Positions 3,856 through 25,319 of a stretch of 25,319 nt of DNA are shown in pieces. A program made the position numbers and the translations under genes. The stretch is taken from IMG/VR virus record IMGVR_UViG_2648501787_000014; one strand, given 5' to 3'. The first letter of the stretch is position 1; every line of letters begins with the position of its first letter. The stretch comes from a virus. Lineage: Duplodnaviria; Heunggongvirae; Uroviricota; Caudoviricetes. The notes under the pieces are model-generated. The model saw nothing but the letters and a program-made list of their open reading frames with translations, ran no database searches and was not told the origin of the DNA.

Positions 3856-4029
3856 TAGCGATAATTTTACTCATCATCCTTCACATCTGGCTCTGTAGGC
3901 AGGGTGGTGAACACTTCTGGAGTGAATCCGGATTAAATATCTCATTGCTGATGCTTGATATTGAGCATCTGGCGCGCGGTAAGGGGCTGCGTTGAGATAA
4001 GGGCCAGTCATTACAAATACCAGGATTTA

Positions 4030-4053
4030 GCCTCGCATTTGCGGGGCTTTTTT
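4030..4053 (+). terminator. Intrinsic terminator downstream of the lysis cassette
   Basis: Stem gcctcgc (4030-4036) / gcggggc (4041-4047), loop attt, then TTTTTT (4048-4053). Confidence 0.6.
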
Positions 4054-4199
4054 ACATCTGCAGTAAACCGCGCATCGCAGCGCGTAACAATCCCGAGTCT
4101 TTCAGAAAGCTGAGCCTGAGAACTGCCGTATATGGTGGCGACCATCTCGGGGCGGCTTTTCTGTGCGAACAGGCTCATCTTTCTAAAAGGTAAGACGCT

Positions 4200-4721
4200 A
4201 TGAATATCGTTCCACTAAATTACAAAGGCGAACCTATCCGCTTCAATACTGATGGCTGGATTAATGCCACTGATATTGCAAAACGTTTCGGGAAGCGTCT
4301 GGATCACTGGTTGTCCAACGCTGAAACTCTCGAATACGTTAGAGCTCTGGATGAGGTTTATTCAGGTGAGCCATCGAAAATTCTACATACCCGTGATTCC
4401 GGGTATGTAAAAACAAGCAAGGCACGAAAGGACAGGGGCGGCGGAACATGGCTGCATCCAAAGTTATCAGTTGCCTTTGCAAGATGGTGCGATCCGAAAT
4501 TCTCCGTATGGTGCGACCTGCACATTGATAGTCTGCTTCGCGGTGAACTGACTGAGCAGCAGAAATATGAGCAAGCATGTCGCATTCGCGATGACCGGAA
4601 ATCAAAAGCCAGCAATGGGGCAAGAGAGATGGCTCGCTGGCGATGGGATAAGCCGGTTATTGAAGCAAATGTCGAGTACTGGCGCGAGCAACTGCAGTTG
4701 ACTCTCGATATCGCGTGCTGA
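4200..4721 (+). CDS. KilA-N domain DNA-binding protein
   Basis: N-terminal region with KilA-N-like motifs (NATDIAKRFGK ... GTWLHPKLSVAFARW); RBS aaaagg upstream. Confidence 0.6.
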   Translation: MNIVPLNYKGEPIRFNTDGWINATDIAKRFGKRLDHWLSNAETLEYVRALDEVYSGEPSKILHTRDSGYVKTSKARKDRGGGTWLHPKLSVAFARWCDPKFSVWCDLHIDSLLRGELTEQQKYEQACRIRDDRKSKASNGAREMARWRWDKPVIEANVEYWREQLQLTLDIAC

Positions 4722-16449: not shown

Positions 16450-17865
16450 ATGGCTACGTGGCAACATGGTATTAATTCTGGTGGTTTTCTGGCTGGCATC
16501 GGTACGCAAAATGAGAATGCGCCAAAGGCAAGCGACATTAACGCAACGCTTGGTCTGATCCGCGAAAACAATGAGTTGGCTCGCTCAGGTGCAAATAACG
16601 TTGGTCTGACCGCGTTACGTGGTCTGGCTGGAGTTGCTGATATTTACAATCAGGAACAGCAACAGAAAGCGATTAGTGCGTTCAATAAGGTTCACGCTGA
16701 TGCATGGGCTTCTGGTGATCCATCGGGACTATTTAAGTTTGCCCAGGAAAATCCAGCGTTTGTTGCACAGGCACAACAGGCGTTTTCTGGTCTTAATGAT
16801 CAGCAACGCAACGATATGGGCGATTTAGCCATGAGGGCTAACGTCGCTCTTTCTCAGGGACCGGAAGCCTACAGTAAATTCATTACTGACAACAAGGACA
16901 GGTTAAATCGCGTTGGTGCTAATGCTGACTGGATGATTCAGACAGGTATCCAGAATCCAGAGCAGCTATCACACATGCTGACTACTATGTCTCTCGGTGC
17001 GCTTGGACCAGAAAAGGCGTTTGCTGTTCAGGATAAGATGGCTGGTCGTGAAATTGACCGAGGCAGGCTGGCAGAGACAATCCGCAGCAATCAGGCTGGT
17101 GAAGCACTTCAGGCGAGAGGGCAAAACCTTTCCTATCAGTCAGCAATGACTGGGCACAATATCGCAGCACAACGCTTGGCTCTGGATCAGCAAGAGTTCG
17201 GGTTTAAGATGCAGCAAGCGCAGGAAAAGGCTCAGCAGTTGATTAGTGAAGCACCTAAGCTGTCAGTAAACATGGAAAAAGGCATCGAGACGGCTGTAAA
17301 CAATGCCACAGCATCATCAAACTCAGCCAATTCTATGAGTGCGCTTGCTCAACAGTTCAGAGCAGAAAAACCAACGACAGGTTTGTTCGGTAACGCACAG
17401 AACATGTTCGCAAAACTTACCGGAAGCGATACGACATTGCGTGATTTGCGCATCCGCCAAAATGCCCTTGTTAACAGTCAGGTTCTTAAATTCCTACCTC
17501 CCGGCCCAGCAACGGATAAAGACGTTGAGATCGTTCGGCAGGGTGCGCCAACTGACATGGATAACCCTGAGACGGTCGCAAGATGGCTTGATGCAATGGC
17601 AAACCTTGAGCGACGAAACGCGCAGTTTAATGAGTTTAAAGCTGAGTGGATGAGCGCGAATGGCAATCCTGGACAATCGCGTAATGGCGGTCAGATATTG
17701 GGGTTGGATGTTAAAAAAGGTGAATCATTGGGGAGTGCCGTTAAGCGGTATATGTCATTGAATACTGACGCAGCGCCAGCACAAGATTCGACACCTTCAG
17801 GAGAACCACGGAATCAGGTTGGATCATATACCTCAAAATCAGGCATTCAATTTACGGTGGAATGA
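16450..17865 (+). CDS. Ejection protein (P22 gp20-like)
   Basis: 471 aa; size and position match gp20. Confidence 0.75.
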
Positions 17866-19703
17866 TGAAAGTAACTGCAAACGGTAAGACATTTACCTTC
17901 CCTGATGGTACGAGCACGGAAGATATTGGAGCCGCCATTGATGATTATTTTGCTGGTCAGGTTGTTCAGCAACAAACAGTTTATCAGGCCAATAATGCAC
18001 CAGTACGTGAAGAACCATCATTGATGCAACAAGCTGGCGATTGGCTCACTGGTGGTCAAAGTGCAGGGCAAATTGCAGAACAGGCTGGTCGTGGTCTGGT
18101 AAACATACCATTTGACGTATTGCAGGGTGGCGCAAGTCTGATTAATGCAATCAGTCAGGGGCTTGGTGGGCCAAAAGTTTTGGATGATGTTTATCGTCCA
18201 GTAGACAAACCGACAGACCCATACGCACAAGCCGGTGAAACAATTGGTGGGTATTTAGTTCCAGGAGTTGGAACGGCAGGAAGCATGGCTATTGGATCGC
18301 TGGCAGAGGCCGCAAATCAGAAAGGCGATTTCGCACAAAATGCAGCTAAAAATGCCGGAGTTAACCTTGCCGCTCAGGGTGTTCTTTCCGCAGCAGCAAA
18401 GGGAATAGGGCGTGGAATAACGGCTATAAAAGGTGATATTGCGCCAGAAGTGGCGAAGAAAATTGCCACATCAGAATCGATGGGCGTGACACCAATGACA
18501 TCTGATGTTATCCCGCCGAAAAATGCTTTCACTCGCGGCCTTACTCAGGATGCCGAGGGGGCTTTGCTCGGGACGGGCTCAAAGCGAGCAGAGCAATATG
18601 CAACGCGGAGTAAGCTGGTAAGCAATTATTTTGACCGTTTTGGTGAGTACAACCCTGATGATGTGGTGAAATCTCTGACCACCACGTTAAGGGGGCGGAA
18701 GGATGCCGCTGGCGCTGTTATCAATGACGTCACCAATAAAATGGGTAATGCCGCAGTTGATACCACAAATACCATGAATGCTCTGAATACAGCGATCGCA
18801 AGACAGGAACGGCTTGGGACGTCTGCCAATCAAAGCCTGCTTACATCCTTGCGTAACCTACGTGAAGAATTAGCAAACCCTGCAACTGATTTGGATGTTA
18901 CGTTTGATCTCTTGCGTCAGCACAGAACAGCATTTAGATCTAATGTTCAGGGAGATGCTATGGTCTTCCCCAACCAGGCAAAAGCAGCTACCAATATGGT
19001 AGAGAATGCAATGTCAAAAGACCTTCGTAACGCAGTTGCTAAAAACCTCGGTGCATCAGACGCAGCAAAATACCTTAAAGCAAATTCCGATTATGCAAAC
19101 GTTTATAATAAGGTGCTTAATAAAAACATTGCCAACAAGCTCAACAAGGCAAGCAGTGAAGCCAGTCCTGAACTTATAAATACCGTTGTATTAAGCAGAA
19201 AACCATCTGACGTGAAACGAATCTGGAGCGCACTGGATGATAAGGGGAAAGATGCTATGCGTGCAGCTTACGTCAGCAAAATAGCGGAAAAGGCCGGGGA
19301 CTCTCCAGCCAAGTTCATCACTGAAGTTAATAAGCTGAAATCTCAGTCAGGCGGTGAAATTTACAACACTATTTTTTCTGGAAAGCACATGAAAGAGCTT
19401 GATGCTCTTCATGAAGTTCTACAGCAAACAGCAAGGTCAGACACCGCAAATGTAGTAACTCAGACGGGGCAATCGCAAGCCAACAGGATAAGGACGATTG
19501 GCGCAACTGCGACCCTTGGCGTATCAATGGGGCTTGAGGCTGGTTTTGGTGCAATGATGCGCTTGTATGAGTCCAAAGCAGCAAGGAATATGCTTCTTCG
19601 TTTGGCAAACACCAAAGCAGGAACACCAGCCTATGAAAGAGCGATAAATAACGCTGCGAATGCCATCAGACCGCTGTTTGCTACTGAGGCAACACAGCAG
19701 TAA
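17862..19703 (+). CDS. Ejection protein (P22 gp16-like)
   Basis: 613 aa; overlaps the gp20 stop; size and position match gp16. Confidence 0.75.
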
Positions 19704-19727
19704 CGTATGGGAAATTGGATTCAATCG

Positions 19728-20117
19728 CTAACATTTTCTTTTTACTTTTCCAACAAAAGCTTTGGTTGAATCCATATTTCCATAACCGGAAATGGTTTTT
19801 GACATTAAAACTGTTCCAGTAGGATGTATTACCCATGAGTCGATAACGCGTTGAGTTTCGCCATTCGCGCCGATTCCTATGATGGAGTTTTTAGACAATG
19901 CTTTGTAAGCCATGCCGCCCGCATCTGTCCCAGAATATGTGATGCTGGCATCTTCACCGTTTGTCTTAATGATGAATGTTCCACTAAAACCATCTTCTTC
20001 CGGATGGAAATTATTTCGTTCTGAATAGCTTATTCCGCGCATATCTCCAACGACCCAGCACTCTGCTGTAGCCCCAAAAGATATGAATAAGAACATAGCA
20101 GTAAGAAATTGCTTCAC
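19728..20117 (-). CDS. Secreted (periplasmic) protein of unknown function; probable moron
   Basis: GTG start preceded by the strong SD taaggaggt (5-nt spacing); signal peptide VKQFLTAMFLFISFGATA then ECW...; opposite strand to the virion genes. The track ORF extends to an upstream ATG at 20198, which lacks an SD. Confidence 0.5.
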   Translation of the reverse strand: MKQFLTAMFLFISFGATAECWVVGDMRGISYSERNNFHPEEDGFSGTFIIKTNGEDASITYSGTDAGGMAYKALSKNSIIGIGANGETQRVIDSWVIHPTGTVLMSKTISGYGNMDSTKAFVGKVKRKC

Positions 20118-20234
20118 GCCAACCTCCTTAGTTTTGAGCAGGATACCATGAAAAAAGTAAACATCTTTTGCGTACTTCACATTTGAATGGTTTGTCATTA
20201 GGATGTTTCCGGTTTTTTAAATATGGAAATTGAT

Positions 20235-20654
20235 ATGAAGAGGATTATTGGCGTCGTTGCTGGCGCTATATTGTTATCTGGGTGCGCAACTATTGTTGGT
20301 GACGAAACGCAGCTTGTGCAAGTGAACAGCAATCCTTCCGGTGCGAGCTTTAAGGTAAAAGACGAATCAGGCGTGATTGTTGCGCAAGGTAAGACCCCGC
20401 AAGGAGTAACTCTTGCCAAGTCAGATGGTAGTTATTTTGGCAAAAAGAGCTACCAGATCACTATGGAGAAGGATGGGTACGAACCAGTTACCCTACCAAT
20501 CAAAGCCAATGCTAATGGTTGGTATATTGGTGGAAATCTTGTGTTTGGTGGGTTAATTGGTTGGCTTGCTGTAGATCCATTTAATGGTGGGATGTATACC
20601 TTGAAGCCTAAAGAGGCAAATGCATCCCTTATACCGTCAACAAAGCAAGACTAA
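20235..20654 (+). CDS. Lipoprotein of unknown function; candidate superinfection-exclusion or lysogenic-conversion protein
   Basis: Signal peptide with lipobox MKRIIGVVAGAILLSGC; Gly-rich amphipathic C-terminus; divergent from the secreted-protein gene; followed by a terminator. Start may instead be the ATG at 20223. Confidence 0.6.
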   Translation: MKRIIGVVAGAILLSGCATIVGDETQLVQVNSNPSGASFKVKDESGVIVAQGKTPQGVTLAKSDGSYFGKKSYQITMEKDGYEPVTLPIKANANGWYIGGNLVFGGLIGWLAVDPFNGGMYTLKPKEANASLIPSTKQD

Positions 20655-20661
20655 TAAATGG

Positions 20662-20686
20662 AACCCACCATCAGGTGGGTTTTTTG
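20662..20686. terminator. Bidirectional intrinsic terminator between the lipoprotein gene and mnt
   Basis: CCCACC-atca-GGTGGG hairpin flanked by an A-run on one side and TTTTTT on the other; convergent gene ends on both sides. Confidence 0.65.
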
Positions 20687-20922
20687 TACAAATCCTTCAG
20701 CGTATCAAACACCATCTTCTTAACAAGTTCGGACTGCTCATCAGCGATGCGTTCCGCATCGTCTCGATAGCCTGAAATTTTGGATTGCCTTGATACAGCA
20801 TCAGTCACTATCTGAACTAATTCTGAATTAATAGAGCGGCCATTGGATTTGGCTCGCTGTTTTAGTTTTTCCTTTAATTCGTAAGGTAGCCGCAGATTAA
20901 ATTGCGGGTCATCTCTTCCCAT
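20671..20922 (-). CDS. mnt: Mnt repressor (Arc/MetJ ribbon-helix-helix family)
   Basis: 83 aa, MGRDDPQFNLRLPYELKEKLKQRAKSNGRSINSELVQIV...ELVKKMVFDTLKDLYKK, closely resembling P22 Mnt. Confidence 0.85.
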   Translation of the reverse strand: MGRDDPQFNLRLPYELKEKLKQRAKSNGRSINSELVQIVTDAVSRQSKISGYRDDAERIADEQSELVKKMVFDTLKDLYKKPT

Positions 20923-20985
20923 TCTTGATGCCTCGCTTTTGTGAGTGGATCGGCATCTTATTATTTGCTGGTTGCATCCTCAATA

Positions 20986-21000
20986 AGACCACTGTGGTCT
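20986..21000. promoter_or_regulatory. Candidate Mnt operator (Omnt-like palindrome)
   Basis: AGACCAC-T-GTGGTCT: perfect 7-bp inverted repeat about a central T, 64 bp upstream of the mnt start, in the divergent promoter region. Confidence 0.5.
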
Positions 21001-21347
21001 CTTTATTTGATTAATAATGCATCACTGCGGCCACGCTGCAGCGATTCCTTGTATCTGGAGCAAATTAAATGACAGATATTATAAATAGGAATTGTTATTT
21101 AATAATATTTGAAAATGAAAATCATGGACGATAGGAATAAAAGTAGTACTTGTTATTTTTAAGTGACGCATTAAACGCATAAAGCATATGTCTGTTGATC
21201 AAGATTCTTGCTTGTTGTAAAATAATTGTTTTGTTCATGTTGTATAGTTTTAAAGTGAATAGAAGATTATTTTTCAAAACAATTGCATCTTTGTCTGCAG
21301 TCATTCCGTTTTCTTCAATATCTAAATTTTCAAACAGGATGACTAAT

Positions 21348-22754
21348 ATGCCTGATATAACTCCAAATGTTGTAATTGGGATGCCTTCTCAACTCTTCAC
21401 TATGGCTCGTTCTTTTAAAGCCGTAGCTAATGGCAAAATTTATATCGGTAAAATTGACACTGACCCGGTAAATCCTGAAAACCAGATTCAGGTTTATGTG
21501 GAGAACGAAGACGGCTCTCACGTTCCTGTATCGCAACCAATCATCATTAACGCTGCTGGTTACCCGGTATATAACGGACAGATTGCCAAGTTCGTAACTG
21601 TGCAAGGCCATTCTATGGCTGTATATGATGCGTATGGTGCGCAGCAGTTCTATTTTCCTAATGTGCTGAAGTATGACCCAGAACAATTTAAAGATACACT
21701 TCATTCTGCGAGCGGAGCGGATAATGTTGGATATAGGGGTTATACTGTTAGTGAGTATCTTTCACACACCGCATTGAGTTTTGGTAACTTAAACGATTGT
21801 CTGTCTCATGACAAATACAAGATAGGAGATAAAGTATTTGTACATGGATATAATTATCCATCAGATGGAGGAATGGCTTCATTTGAGGTTGTGTCATCAG
21901 ATGAACCAGTTGGAATAAAAACTTACGATGGTAAGTTTAAGCTAAAGCGAACATCTGGGCATAATTATCTTGAGTTAATAATAAAAAATGGTGCGACGCC
22001 AAAGATAATTGCCCATAGAGGATGGGCAGGAATAACGCCAAATGAATATCAGGGAGCATTGACTGCGCCTGTTTATTTCGTTCCAGAAAATACAAGGGCA
22101 TCAATTAGATTTTGTGCTGAAAGAGGAGCTTTTGGTGTTGAAGGGGATACCAAAATAACATTAGACGGAGTTCCTGTCATATTCCATGATGAGACAGTTG
22201 ATAGAACTACAAATGGTACTGGTGCCGTATCAACATTTACTTTTTTAGAGCTAAAGGCCCTCGATGCTGGATCGTATGTTTCTGGTATTTATGCAGATGA
22301 GAAAATACTCAATTATGATGAATGGATTAGAGAATGCAAGCGTCGCGGAGTAATGCCATTTGTTGAGTGGTCTGCGCCAATGAGTGTCACTCAAGCTGAT
22401 AATTTTCTTGAAACTATAAATAAATATTATGGCACAAAGCCGACGAATGTCTTTGTTTATTCAACATATCCTGCCGTTCTTGAACTGTTGCGTTCAAAAA
22501 ATGCTTATATTGGACTTGGTGTTATACCATCTTACGGTGTCGCACCAACTACAGAACAATTGGAGCTGGCGTATAAGCTTGGCAACTGTGGTATATCTCT
22601 ATCAGGTGGAATAATTACGAATGCCGCTGTTGTAAATTCAGTTAAGAAATATGGTTTGTTGTTGATTTATGCAATTGCTAACACCCCGGCAAGAATTGAT
22701 AATTGCATATCTGCAGGCGTTGATATAATGATTACTGATTGCTATAGAGGGTAA
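21348..22754 (+). CDS. Tailspike: P22-type N-terminal head-binding domain fused to a GDPD (glycerophosphodiester phosphodiesterase) domain
   Basis: N-terminal ~110 aa ([38 protein letters not shown]...[13 protein letters not shown]...[10 protein letters not shown]) match the P22 gp9 head-binding domain. C-terminal half carries GDPD motifs: [32 protein letters not shown]. Confidence 0.8.
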
Positions 22755-22755
22755 A

Positions 22756-23541
22756 ATGAATATAAAAACATATAGACAAATTCATGGTGGTATGAGGTCG
22801 TTTGTTACCACAAGTTTATTCCCTGTTGGGGCGAATAAATTTGACAAATCCGATGCAAGGAAGTCTGTTCTCAGTAAGACATCATCAGATAGTGCGGCGC
22901 TGGAAGTGATGGATTTAGGATGGCTGGCTGCTGGTACATGTATTTCATTTTGCTGTGATATAAAAATAAATACTCAAATGTCTGGTGCACCGTCAATAAG
23001 CATCGAGTCGCGTAATGGCGCAAGGCTAAGTGATGGAAGGAAAATAGTAAACATAGGCACGACTAACTCTAAAGAATGGGAGACAGTGCGTTGTGATTGG
23101 ATTGTGTCTGAGTTTGATAACTGGATAACTCTGTCATATGGGGCTTCTACACCTGTATTGGGACAGTTTGAGTTCAGAAATCCAAGAATTTCTATCACGA
23201 ATGATCAGGCTAGATTGCCTATAAATTTCTCTCTACTCAGATCAGGTAATGTTTGGCGTGTTGATACTGGCACATTTATTTACAATGGAGCTGTATTAGT
23301 ATCAGCAAACGGTGACTCAATAGAGGTTAGTTGGCCATATGTGAACAATATTAGATCACCAATAGTTCACACAACTATAGATACTGGTTTTAGTCTGTTA
23401 TCTGCTGGATGTATATCATGCGGTCCACATTCAGTAAGTAATTCAGGATGCAAAATTCGATTAATTAAACCTGATGGCTCATTTGTAACAGATGTTACAA
23501 ATGGAACGACACTGAGAATTCATGTAAGCGTTAATTATTAA
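22756..23541 (+). CDS. Hypothetical protein (261 aa) coupled to the tailspike; possible receptor-binding accessory
   Basis: Starts 2 nt after the tailspike stop; same AT-rich composition; Ser/Thr/Asn/Gly-rich, beta-like sequence; no TM segment or known motif recognised. Confidence 0.5.
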   Translation: MNIKTYRQIHGGMRSFVTTSLFPVGANKFDKSDARKSVLSKTSSDSAALEVMDLGWLAAGTCISFCCDIKINTQMSGAPSISIESRNGARLSDGRKIVNIGTTNSKEWETVRCDWIVSEFDNWITLSYGASTPVLGQFEFRNPRISITNDQARLPINFSLLRSGNVWRVDTGTFIYNGAVLVSANGDSIEVSWPYVNNIRSPIVHTTIDTGFSLLSAGCISCGPHSVSNSGCKIRLIKPDGSFVTDVTNGTTLRIHVSVNY

Positions 23542-24770: not shown

Positions 24771-24810
24771 AACGTCAATTAACATCAATTAACATCAATT
24801 AACATTAAGG
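24771..24810. repeat. Four tandem copies of a 10-bp unit (aacRtcaatt)
   Basis: aacgtcaatt aacatcaatt aacatcaatt aacattaagg; overlaps the last codons and 3' flank of the MarR-like gene. Confidence 0.7.
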
Positions 24811-25289
24811 TTTGATAATAATTTTTTGTTGGCGAGTTCAAATGTTTTCATTTCATCATCTGATAGCCCGCTCCAGATTTTCTTTAGCATTACATTTTGA
24901 GTGTTTATTAGTTTTTGAGCAAGTGTAACTCCGTCAGGGGTTAAGCAAATACTTTTGCTTCGACGATCGTTTTTATTATTAATTCTTTTGGCAATATTCT
25001 TTTTTTCTAATTTGTCTATGATGTGTGTGATGTTTGTTTTGGAGAATTGTAACTCCTTGTAAATATCAGAAGGGGACTGACAATAATCATCAGACATATA
25101 TAATGAAACTAACACCATAAATGTTGAAGTGTTTATTCTATACTCGCTCAATTCATTTTCTATAATACTCTGGATTTTGTCATTTACTCTAATATATAAG
25201 TGTATTAACAGACTCTCCTGAGCCGGGTATGCCGGATTTTTGATTTTTTTGTAGTTTGTTATAGTTTTTAATAAATCTATATTATTCAT
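24795..25289 (-). CDS. MarR-family winged-helix transcriptional regulator
   Basis: MarR-type wHTH segment SPSDIYKELQFSKTNITHIIDKLEKKNIAKRINNKNDRRSKSICLTPDG; very AT-rich. Start taken at the internal Met (MNNIDLL, GGTGG RBS); the track ORF runs to the window edge at 25319. Confidence 0.65.
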   Translation of the reverse strand: MNNIDLLKTITNYKKIKNPAYPAQESLLIHLYIRVNDKIQSIIENELSEYRINTSTFMVLVSLYMSDDYCQSPSDIYKELQFSKTNITHIIDKLEKKNIAKRINNKNDRRSKSICLTPDGVTLAQKLINTQNVMLKKIWSGLSDDEMKTFELANKKLLSNLNVN

Positions 25290-25319
25290 AATTCCACCAC
25301 ACGGCAAAAGAAAACTCAT

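Follow-up and report, generated by a model that had tools for sequence, protein, structure and literature searches.

Small exported proteins of a resident phage can stop the DNA of an incoming phage from crossing the envelope: P1 Sim acts on P1 entry, and T4 Spackle targets the gp5 lysozyme. In P22, DNA injection is blocked by SieA, an inner-membrane superinfection exclusion protein whose gene confers full P22 exclusion in single copy even when just 85 bp of upstream sequence accompany it (PMC10883804). In phage 434, hex is co-transcribed with cI from PRM in lysogens (Shkilnyj et al., PMC3564112) and is required for P22 exclusion by lambda-imm434 lysogens of Salmonella (stated in PMC3564112, citing Susskind and Botstein 1980). 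Lipoproteins encoded inside the structural clusters of temperate coliphages exclude phages with a shared outer-membrane receptor (PMC11893012). Here we analyse positions 19704-20686 of a 25,319-nt stretch of viral DNA (IMG/VR record IMGVR_UViG_2648501787_000014; hereafter the window), which covers the late genes and the right-hand end of a P22-like E. coli prophage. The two genes under study lie in the variable stretch from gene 16 to the tailspike gene, named the 'ant moron' and shown to be in rapid flux (Villafane et al., PMC2629481). The region is the left part of this ant moron, with two independent, exchangeable cargo genes back to back: a leftward gene related to hex and a rightward lipoprotein gene.

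A Hex homologue at the sieA position

A preliminary description had placed, between gene 16 and mnt at the position of sieA, a minus-strand gene for a secreted protein with a cleavable signal peptide and a strong Shine-Dalgarno sequence, and a plus-strand gene for a lipoprotein with a classical lipobox. Our analysis bore out each of these points. Both genes are real, at the coordinates listed below and in the lipoprotein section; each belongs to a conserved protein family, so neither is a chance open reading frame (ORF). The leftward gene takes the SieA position, in leftward orientation in the slot from gene 16 to the mnt/tailspike region, and the synteny extends down to a shared promoter-proximal, Shine-Dalgarno and start-codon module.

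19728-20117, minus strand: Hex-family gene with a GTG start, encoding a 129-aa secreted protein predicted to form a small 8-stranded β-barrel with N- and C-terminal Cys
20064-20117, minus strand: signal peptide, residues 1-18, with predicted cleavage between ATA and ECW (read from the sequence; features kept in 60 homologues)

The longest ORF of the leftward gene (19728-20198) over-extends it; the start is the GTG at 20117, which is also the start in homologues from other phages and has an AAGGAGG Shine-Dalgarno sequence (complement of 20123-20129) 5 nt upstream. The 129-aa product begins with MKQFLTAMFLFISFGATA, followed past the cleavage site by ECW, and its last residue is Cys. A tblastn search of phage genomes gave a 97% match to the Salmonella phages Emek (orf129) and ST-35, and a full-length match to the gene that immediately follows the repressor gene in 434, lambda-imm434, Sf6 (gene 38), Sf101, HK446 and HK633 (27% over 129 aa, E 9e-5). 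Alignment of the leftward family with the 434 protein by hhalign returned a probability of 98.2% (E 5e-14, 128 columns). The 434 N-terminus reads MIRIAALLSILLTTSANS, then ECW, and the window protein has the marks of the 434 Hex / Sf6 gp38 family, namely an N-terminal signal-like segment, then x-C-W, plus a Cys at or near the C-terminus. By these comparisons, 434 Hex and Sf6 gp38 are distant homologues of the leftward gene product over its full length.

A word-indexed search found 22 close relatives of the leftward protein, and a full profile search found 119 family representatives at 50% identity, nearly all of 120-140 aa. Across 60 aligned members the N-termini vary in sequence yet keep signal-peptide features: one to three K/R within the first eight residues (58 of 60), an uncharged N-terminal run of 12-22 aa, and A, S or G at the -1 residue of the predicted cleavage site (56 of 60). 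The Cys at mature position 2 is invariant, and the mature proteins carry two or four Cys in 60 of 60. Conserved N-terminal features and an even number of Cys together form the signature expected of an exported, disulfide-bonded periplasmic protein. The signal peptide is the only hydrophobic 19-mer in the window protein, and the mature part of the most divergent close allele differs by nine synonymous and three non-synonymous changes. AlphaFold models the protein as all-β (predicted local distance difference test (pLDDT) 82), the first and last strands being the long ones. RefSeq start calls often shorten the signal peptides of this family, giving a 122-aa form of the window protein (for example, L003, 20025-20393) and a 103-aa form of 434 Hex (759 contigs); the exported nature of the family is thereby hidden.

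The leftward protein falls in phrog_2651 (unknown function) and has no match in Pfam, NCBIfam or PADLOC scans; for the two proteins together, these scans returned only a sub-threshold PEGA match and a weak LEPBI_I2678 match. Searching Pfam with 60 Hex-family and 30 lipoprotein-family members contributed nothing further, profile searches of PDB sequences were negative for both families, and a Foldseek search of viral models was uninformative (TM-score < 0.5). Scans for related loci with single proteins as queries returned one locus in one case and no locus in the other. Two other identities for the leftward protein were rejected. A lysozyme inhibitor (PliC/MliC-like, 'Spackle-like') found no MliC profile match and a fold match no better than to unrelated barrels, and an outer-membrane barrel is at odds with a mature length of ~110 residues and a terminal Cys instead of an aromatic residue.

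A start module common to sieA and unrelated genes

The leftward gene begins at a short control segment homologous to that of P22 sieA.

20115-20164, minus strand: conserved expression module common to P22 sieA, comprising the start codon, the Shine-Dalgarno sequence (20123-20129), the leader, an extended -10-like TGGTATCCT (20140-20148) and part of the annotated sieA promoter region (94% identity to P22; alignments)

These 50 bp align with P22 13828-13877, a segment that P22 records assign to the start of sieA and a portion of its promoter. The minus-strand module ATGTT(T/A)ACTTTTTTCATGGTATCCTGCnCAAAACTAAGGAGGTTGG(C/T)GTG is common to the window, P22 sieA, HK620 hkcB and epsilon34 gene 14, and its downstream half, from TGGTATCCT on, is also present in Emek orf129, JEP4 and phiv205-1. 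Homology does not extend past the start codon; at its upstream end, in Emek, JEP4 and phiv205-1, it breaks off immediately before TGGTATCCT. The sequence TGGTATCCT may serve as a putative extended -10 promoter element.

Scanning IMG/VR for the exact module pattern gave at least 120 loci; 120 of these, together with the window and six reference phages, make up the 127 instances listed here, with cargo families defined by translation from the module GTG. Among these instances, 12 unrelated cargo families and one truncated ORF start at the module GTG:

Hex-like, 31 instances
HkcB-type, first group (membrane anchor and coiled coil), 25 instances
HkcB-type, second group, 15 instances
62-aa two-helix peptide, 11 instances
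SieA, 9 instances
75-aa membrane peptide, 9 instances
116-aa multi-helix protein, 6 instances
149-aa anchored protein, 5 instances
140-aa protein without a hydrophobic segment, 5 instances
99-aa protein with a signal peptide, 4 instances
106-aa anchored protein, 4 instances
68-aa protein, 2 instances

A transmembrane-like 19-mer is found in nine of the 12 families listed, a short hydrophobic or signal-like N-terminus in two more, and neither in one. With such a segment in 11 of 12 families, the leftward slot seems reserved for envelope proteins, and it seems to behave as an exchange site for them, one of its occupants being the proven exclusion protein SieA. The window protein itself has no sequence similarity to SieA (BLASTP E 0.99), and the motif FxRYPxEAxxFNK is absent from its 129-aa sequence. 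JEP4 (L015, 2321-2509) and phiv205-1 (L016) each have a sieA-type module from which a 62-aa ORF encoding two hydrophobic helices begins, an ORF that is not annotated.

Two independent cassettes

The two genes are adjacent and divergent, and among 5426 complete E. coli genomes 45 have the whole 983-bp unit at 98-99% identity and 311 have portions of it (E. coli O111:H- 11128 is one with the exact unit), as would be expected if the periplasmic protein and the lipoprotein made up one two-component envelope system. Their association is loose, however. Among the 127 instances listed, the lipoprotein lies opposite six different leftward families, SieA and HkcB types included, and in the listed cases having enough flank the Hex-like gene is accompanied by the lipoprotein in 12 of 29 and lacks it in 17, being found also with HkcC-type and other rightward genes. 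Megablast matches are similarly mosaic: epsilon34 shares 20115-20686, lipoprotein included, without the Hex-like gene, and Emek and ST-35 share 19704 to ~20150 without the lipoprotein. Both families also occur alone at other genomic positions. A joint system is therefore highly improbable, and the two genes do not make a functional pair.

Variable pairing and mosaic matches mark the two genes as independent modules; they are not an obligate pair but independent cassettes in the ant moron. Both come and go among syntenic relatives, as the mosaic matches and the census of both slots show (cf. PMC2629481). Of the signals expected of a moron, a self-contained insert within a phage operon, the lipoprotein gene has a clear terminator, and promoters are recognized by consensus or sieA-region homology only. 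Proteins identical to the two in the window occur on at least 1000 contigs from E. coli and its relatives, labelled hypothetical throughout.

Among the instances listed, the rightward slot holds an HkcC-type protein with HExxH in 31, the lipoprotein in 29, and several others. The HkcC-type protein (121 aa; HK620 hkcC, L018, 1534-1899) carries HExxH as AHECAHM, has no export signal and may be a small metalloprotease-like regulator.

Predicted export and the published role of Hex

Homology to Hex raises the alternative that the leftward protein does what has been published for 434 Hex (PMC3564112), stabilizing lysogeny by shielding repressor from RecA-stimulated autocleavage, with any exclusion as a secondary effect. 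In that study, hex deletion raised spontaneous induction 30-fold in recA+ but not in recA- hosts, and a Hex fragment blocked cleavage of the 434 and P22 repressors in vitro; some database records accordingly call the 434 protein 'repressor protection protein'. The same work reports that full-length Hex is toxic on over-production and that the active stable fragment, 'sHex', begins at Glu43 of a 158-aa ORF (PMC3564112). We noted that this ORF is the 134-aa ORF plus 24 upstream codons (phage 434, 2429-2905), so that Glu43 is exactly the first residue past the predicted signal-peptidase site. PMC3564112 contains no mention of a signal peptide and never considers export.

Against such a role, all 60 family members retain an N-terminus that resembles a signal peptide, together with Cys in even number, and a cytoplasmic function does not fit a periplasmic protein. 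Gene position points the same way. Whereas in 434 and Sf6 hex is the gene that immediately follows cI, with PRM co-transcription in 434, the window gene is not beside a repressor gene but in the sieA slot between gene 16 and mnt, and on another contig a family member follows tail-fibre genes. Phages carrying the gene in different slots would differ in repressor, a poor fit with a repressor-specific partner. We therefore regard repressor protection as an unlikely role for the window protein, and the cytoplasmic mechanism of Hex as doubtful, not refuted. The contig just mentioned, from a siphovirus (L147), carries a Cor-like small lipoprotein ORF (2386-2619) and a Hex-family gene (4001-4390), both within the tail-fibre genes or following them, and thus a pair of neighbouring exclusion candidates.

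A predicted outer-membrane lipoprotein

The rightward gene and its signals are as follows.

20176-20204, plus strand: promoter-like site TTCACA-17-TAGGAT for the lipoprotein gene (consensus scan, 9/12 matches; putative)
20235-20654, plus strand: lipoprotein gene (epsilon34 gp15 family, phrog_6823), 139 aa, with lipobox LSGC and Cys17, a PEGA/transthyretin-like β-sandwich (~25-93) and an invariant Gly-rich hydrophobic motif (94-121) (sequence, homology, AlphaFold)
20661-20687, both strands: bidirectional intrinsic terminator common to the lipoprotein gene (plus) and mnt (minus) (scan, folding energy, epsilon34 annotation)

The lipoprotein N-terminus reads MKRIIGVVAGAILLSGC, then ATIVGD..., with the lipobox L-S-G-C (LLSGC), which fits the pattern [LVI][ASTVI][GAS]C, ending in Cys17 and Ala at +2. 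Neither Cys17 nor Ala18 varies among 30 aligned sequences, and four homologues match the Pfam LPAM_1 model. The residue at +2 decides lipoprotein sorting, Asp holding the protein in the inner membrane; the invariant Ala18 thus predicts sorting to the outer membrane. The PEGA (PF08308) match is below the Pfam gathering threshold. AlphaFold gives a confident β-sandwich over residues 25-93 (pLDDT > 90) and a short C-terminal hairpin, and the motif NGWYIGGNxxFGGxIGWxxVDPFNGGMY is invariant or nearly so among homologues. A Cor identity was rejected, as the PHROG Cor match covers only residues 1-20, the signal peptide (E 0.003).

Both genes had been thought to end at a terminator, which holds for the lipoprotein gene alone. 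The hairpin at 20661-20681 with its U-run folds with a free energy (dG) of -15.4 kcal/mol (z -3.1) on the plus strand and -14.0 kcal/mol (z about -3) on the minus strand, and the epsilon34 record annotates a rho-independent terminator at this site. The 3' side of the leftward gene, whose stop is 24 nt from the gene 16 stop codon, has no terminator-like fold (dG -3.2, z +0.96). The suggested divergent promoter region comes down to a consensus match on the rightward side, with no standard match for the leftward gene; the leftward control region is homologous to that of P22 sieA. The rightward site is nearly identical in epsilon34, and the number of sites in the promoter scan was no higher than expected by chance. 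The lipoprotein gene is co-directional with the late operon and, to judge from the P22 ant moron, should therefore be expressed by late read-through as well.

The lipoprotein shares 98-100% identity with epsilon34 gp15 and with the products of genes in phages Gally and 720R6; tblastn with it returned only four phage records, all gp15 orthologues. A wider search found 728 homologues across Enterobacterales. Homologues with 68-78% identity lie between the tail chaperone and tape-measure genes of siphovirus prophages (E. coli, Proteus), and another lies just ahead of the J-like tail-tip gene in a Pseudescherichia prophage. All those in the tail-gene clusters of these unrelated prophages are co-oriented with the tail genes, and the Proteus copy has its own promoter-like site and terminators on its flanks. 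In E. coli siphovirus prophages with a lipoprotein homologue, a porin gene (PF00267; L004, 10261-11424, also L006, L007 and L008) lies between tail genes M and L.

This distribution bears on a further alternative, in which at least one of the genes is Bor/Lom-type cargo for lysogenic conversion that raises host fitness, serving envelope robustness, serum or stress resistance, or colonization, and leaves phages unaffected. Members of the lipoprotein family are found widely in Enterobacterales; its relatives are also plain chromosomal genes at non-phage sites in Enterobacter, with longer forms in other chromosomal contexts; the exact window proteins are abundant in E. coli; and tail-cluster cargo often consists of virulence or fitness genes, such as the porin gene. 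Set against this, P22 has its proven exclusion gene sieA in the leftward slot, an exclusion phenotype belongs to the relative Hex, and the lipoprotein recurs beside DNA-delivery genes in three phage architectures, though this may be just tolerance of inserts. For one or both genes we consider a pure host-fitness role rather unlikely. For the lipoprotein taken singly, superinfection exclusion is speculative and a host-fitness role about as likely.

A candidate route to superinfection exclusion

Judged from sequence, both genes are common prophage cargo whose products probably act in the cell envelope. Superinfection exclusion by the Hex-like protein is well motivated: the published P22-exclusion phenotype of Hex makes the proposal reasonable, and Hex homology, the sieA module and the envelope-protein census give the exclusion idea real support for this gene. 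The preliminary description had named both genes as exclusion candidates; the Hex-like gene keeps that standing, whereas the lipoprotein has no homology to a known exclusion protein. Its other suggestion, surface modification, finds no echo here, as nothing points to O-antigen modification.

In our favoured explanation, the sieA-type promoter-proximal, Shine-Dalgarno and GTG module of the leftward slot would drive a Hex/Sf6 gp38-family member, whose product would be exported via its cleavable signal peptide and fold in the periplasm as a small disulfide-closed β-barrel. There, as a soluble counterpart of inner-membrane SieA, it may disturb periplasmic DNA delivery (the ejection-protein conduit or cell-wall passage) and so keep other P22-like phages out of the lysogen. 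The lipoprotein, whose gene may be transcribed from its own weak promoter and by late-operon read-through, would go to the outer membrane, where its Gly-rich hydrophobic segment probably dips into the membrane; it may mask or disturb an outer-membrane component needed by incoming phages and possibly also protect released progeny. What the sequences show is the anatomy of the genes, their targeting signals, homology and modularity, and the contexts they occupy in other phages; expression in lysogens, cellular location and any exclusion activity are what we infer. Taken whole, with two exchangeable cargo genes, Hex-like periplasmic exclusion and outer-membrane lipoprotein masking, it has in our judgement an even chance of being correct.

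Several observations weigh against this explanation. Identity to Hex is low (27-29%), and the sole biochemical study of Hex gives it a cytoplasmic role, blocking RecA-stimulated repressor cleavage (PMC3564112). The barrel fold of the leftward protein is generic, and its structure gives no hint of a target. A promoter scan found no standard sigma-70 site for the leftward gene, and the upstream part of the annotated P22 sieA promoter, TTGGTA included, is not conserved in the window. For the lipoprotein, AlphaFold has low confidence in the helical hairpin over the Gly-rich hydrophobic motif, no relation to Cor, Llp or any PADLOC model was detectable, and close chromosomal relatives in Enterobacter make a housekeeping envelope role possible.

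A bolder version of the favoured explanation can be put forward tentatively, as one we think possible but doubt. Here the sieA start module would be a dedicated hot-swap socket for at least a dozen unrelated envelope-targeted exclusion proteins; the Hex family, the most frequent in the sampled contigs, would act in the periplasm on DNA delivery, and 'repressor protection' would be an artefact of an unexported fragment.

Both gene families were already known as hypothetical proteins in databases, as was the variability of the region, and literature searches turned up nothing on either gene apart from the annotations of epsilon34 and Emek. What appears to be new is the connection of the sieA slot with Hex, the predicted secretion of Hex-family proteins, and a conserved start module used by many different cargo genes. 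If a Hex-like protein does block P22-like entry from the periplasm, it would offer a soluble, easily purified probe of the trans-envelope DNA conduit formed by ejection proteins, complementing the membrane protein SieA, and the mechanism of the classical 434 hex gene would be reopened. The sieA start module is also a simple sequence handle with which to collect more candidate exclusion proteins from prophages. With the exact proteins on so many contigs, any phenotype would be relevant to how susceptible many clinical and food isolates are to phages, and hence to phage typing and therapy.

Genomic setting

Two further features bound the locus.

17862-19703, plus strand: gene 16 homologue (ejection / DNA transfer protein; 613-aa ORF; syntenic with its counterparts in epsilon34, Emek, P22 and HK620), the left boundary of the ant moron
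20671-20922, minus strand: mnt repressor gene (Pfam Arc, E 3e-21; Repressor_Mnt, E 1e-18), the right boundary of the two-slot cassette

The mnt gene is an orphan, with neither arc nor ant between it and the tailspike gene (20671-21344). The tailspike ORF (21195-22754, likely start ~21345) combines a P22 head-binding domain (PF09008, E 6e-66) with a GDPD (glycerophosphodiester phosphodiesterase) domain (PF03009, E 2e-23) that replaces the usual β-helix glycanase, and the tailspike may cleave a phosphodiester-linked surface polysaccharide. It is followed by an ORF of 261 aa (22756-23541) without a Pfam match. The segment 20900-25319 reaches at least 80% coverage in no complete E. coli genome. 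From ~23.6 kb to 25319 the window matches the E. coli chromosome (MarR-family gene at 24795-25319, an Arm-domain remnant and tRNA-Thr), which places the prophage junction inside the window.

Comparison with known systems

The lipoprotein gene has its closest described counterpart in epsilon34 gp15, a 98% identical lipoprotein in the same slot and with the same terminator, whose leftward neighbour is of HkcB type where that in the window is of Hex type. As early as 2008, epsilon34 gp15 was reported to match numerous bacterial genes without an assigned function (PMC2629481). Cor (phi80/N15), Llp (T5) and Lpp021/Lpp010 (mEpimmI phages), lipoproteins encoded within or beside phage structural gene clusters that act at the outer membrane on the receptor, provide a possible working model. 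The window lipoprotein has no sequence relation to them and is larger, with a PEGA-like sandwich and a Gly-rich hydrophobic motif.

The leftward gene resembles P22 sieA in its slot between gene 16 and mnt, orientation, Shine-Dalgarno sequence, start codon and promoter-proximal DNA, and both products appear envelope-targeted. They differ in architecture: SieA has three to four inner-membrane transmembrane helices and no signal peptide, whereas the window protein has a single hydrophobic 19-mer, within one cleavable signal peptide, and an all-β soluble domain in its AlphaFold model. To 434 Hex and Sf6 gp38 the likeness is in the protein itself, in size, in the signal peptide followed by ECW and in the C-terminal Cys. 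Both genes are carried by temperate enterobacterial phages at prophage-expressed positions (a position that, in the window, would be expressed), the 434 and Sf6 genes downstream of cI and the window gene in the sieA slot of the late region. For 434 Hex itself, the published role is cytoplasmic and the sequence-predicted location periplasmic. For the mechanism proposed here, the parallels are P1 Sim and T4 Spackle, to which no homology was found, no search aimed at it having been made; a Hex-like protein that hinders DNA delivery from the periplasm would be akin to them in its mode of action.

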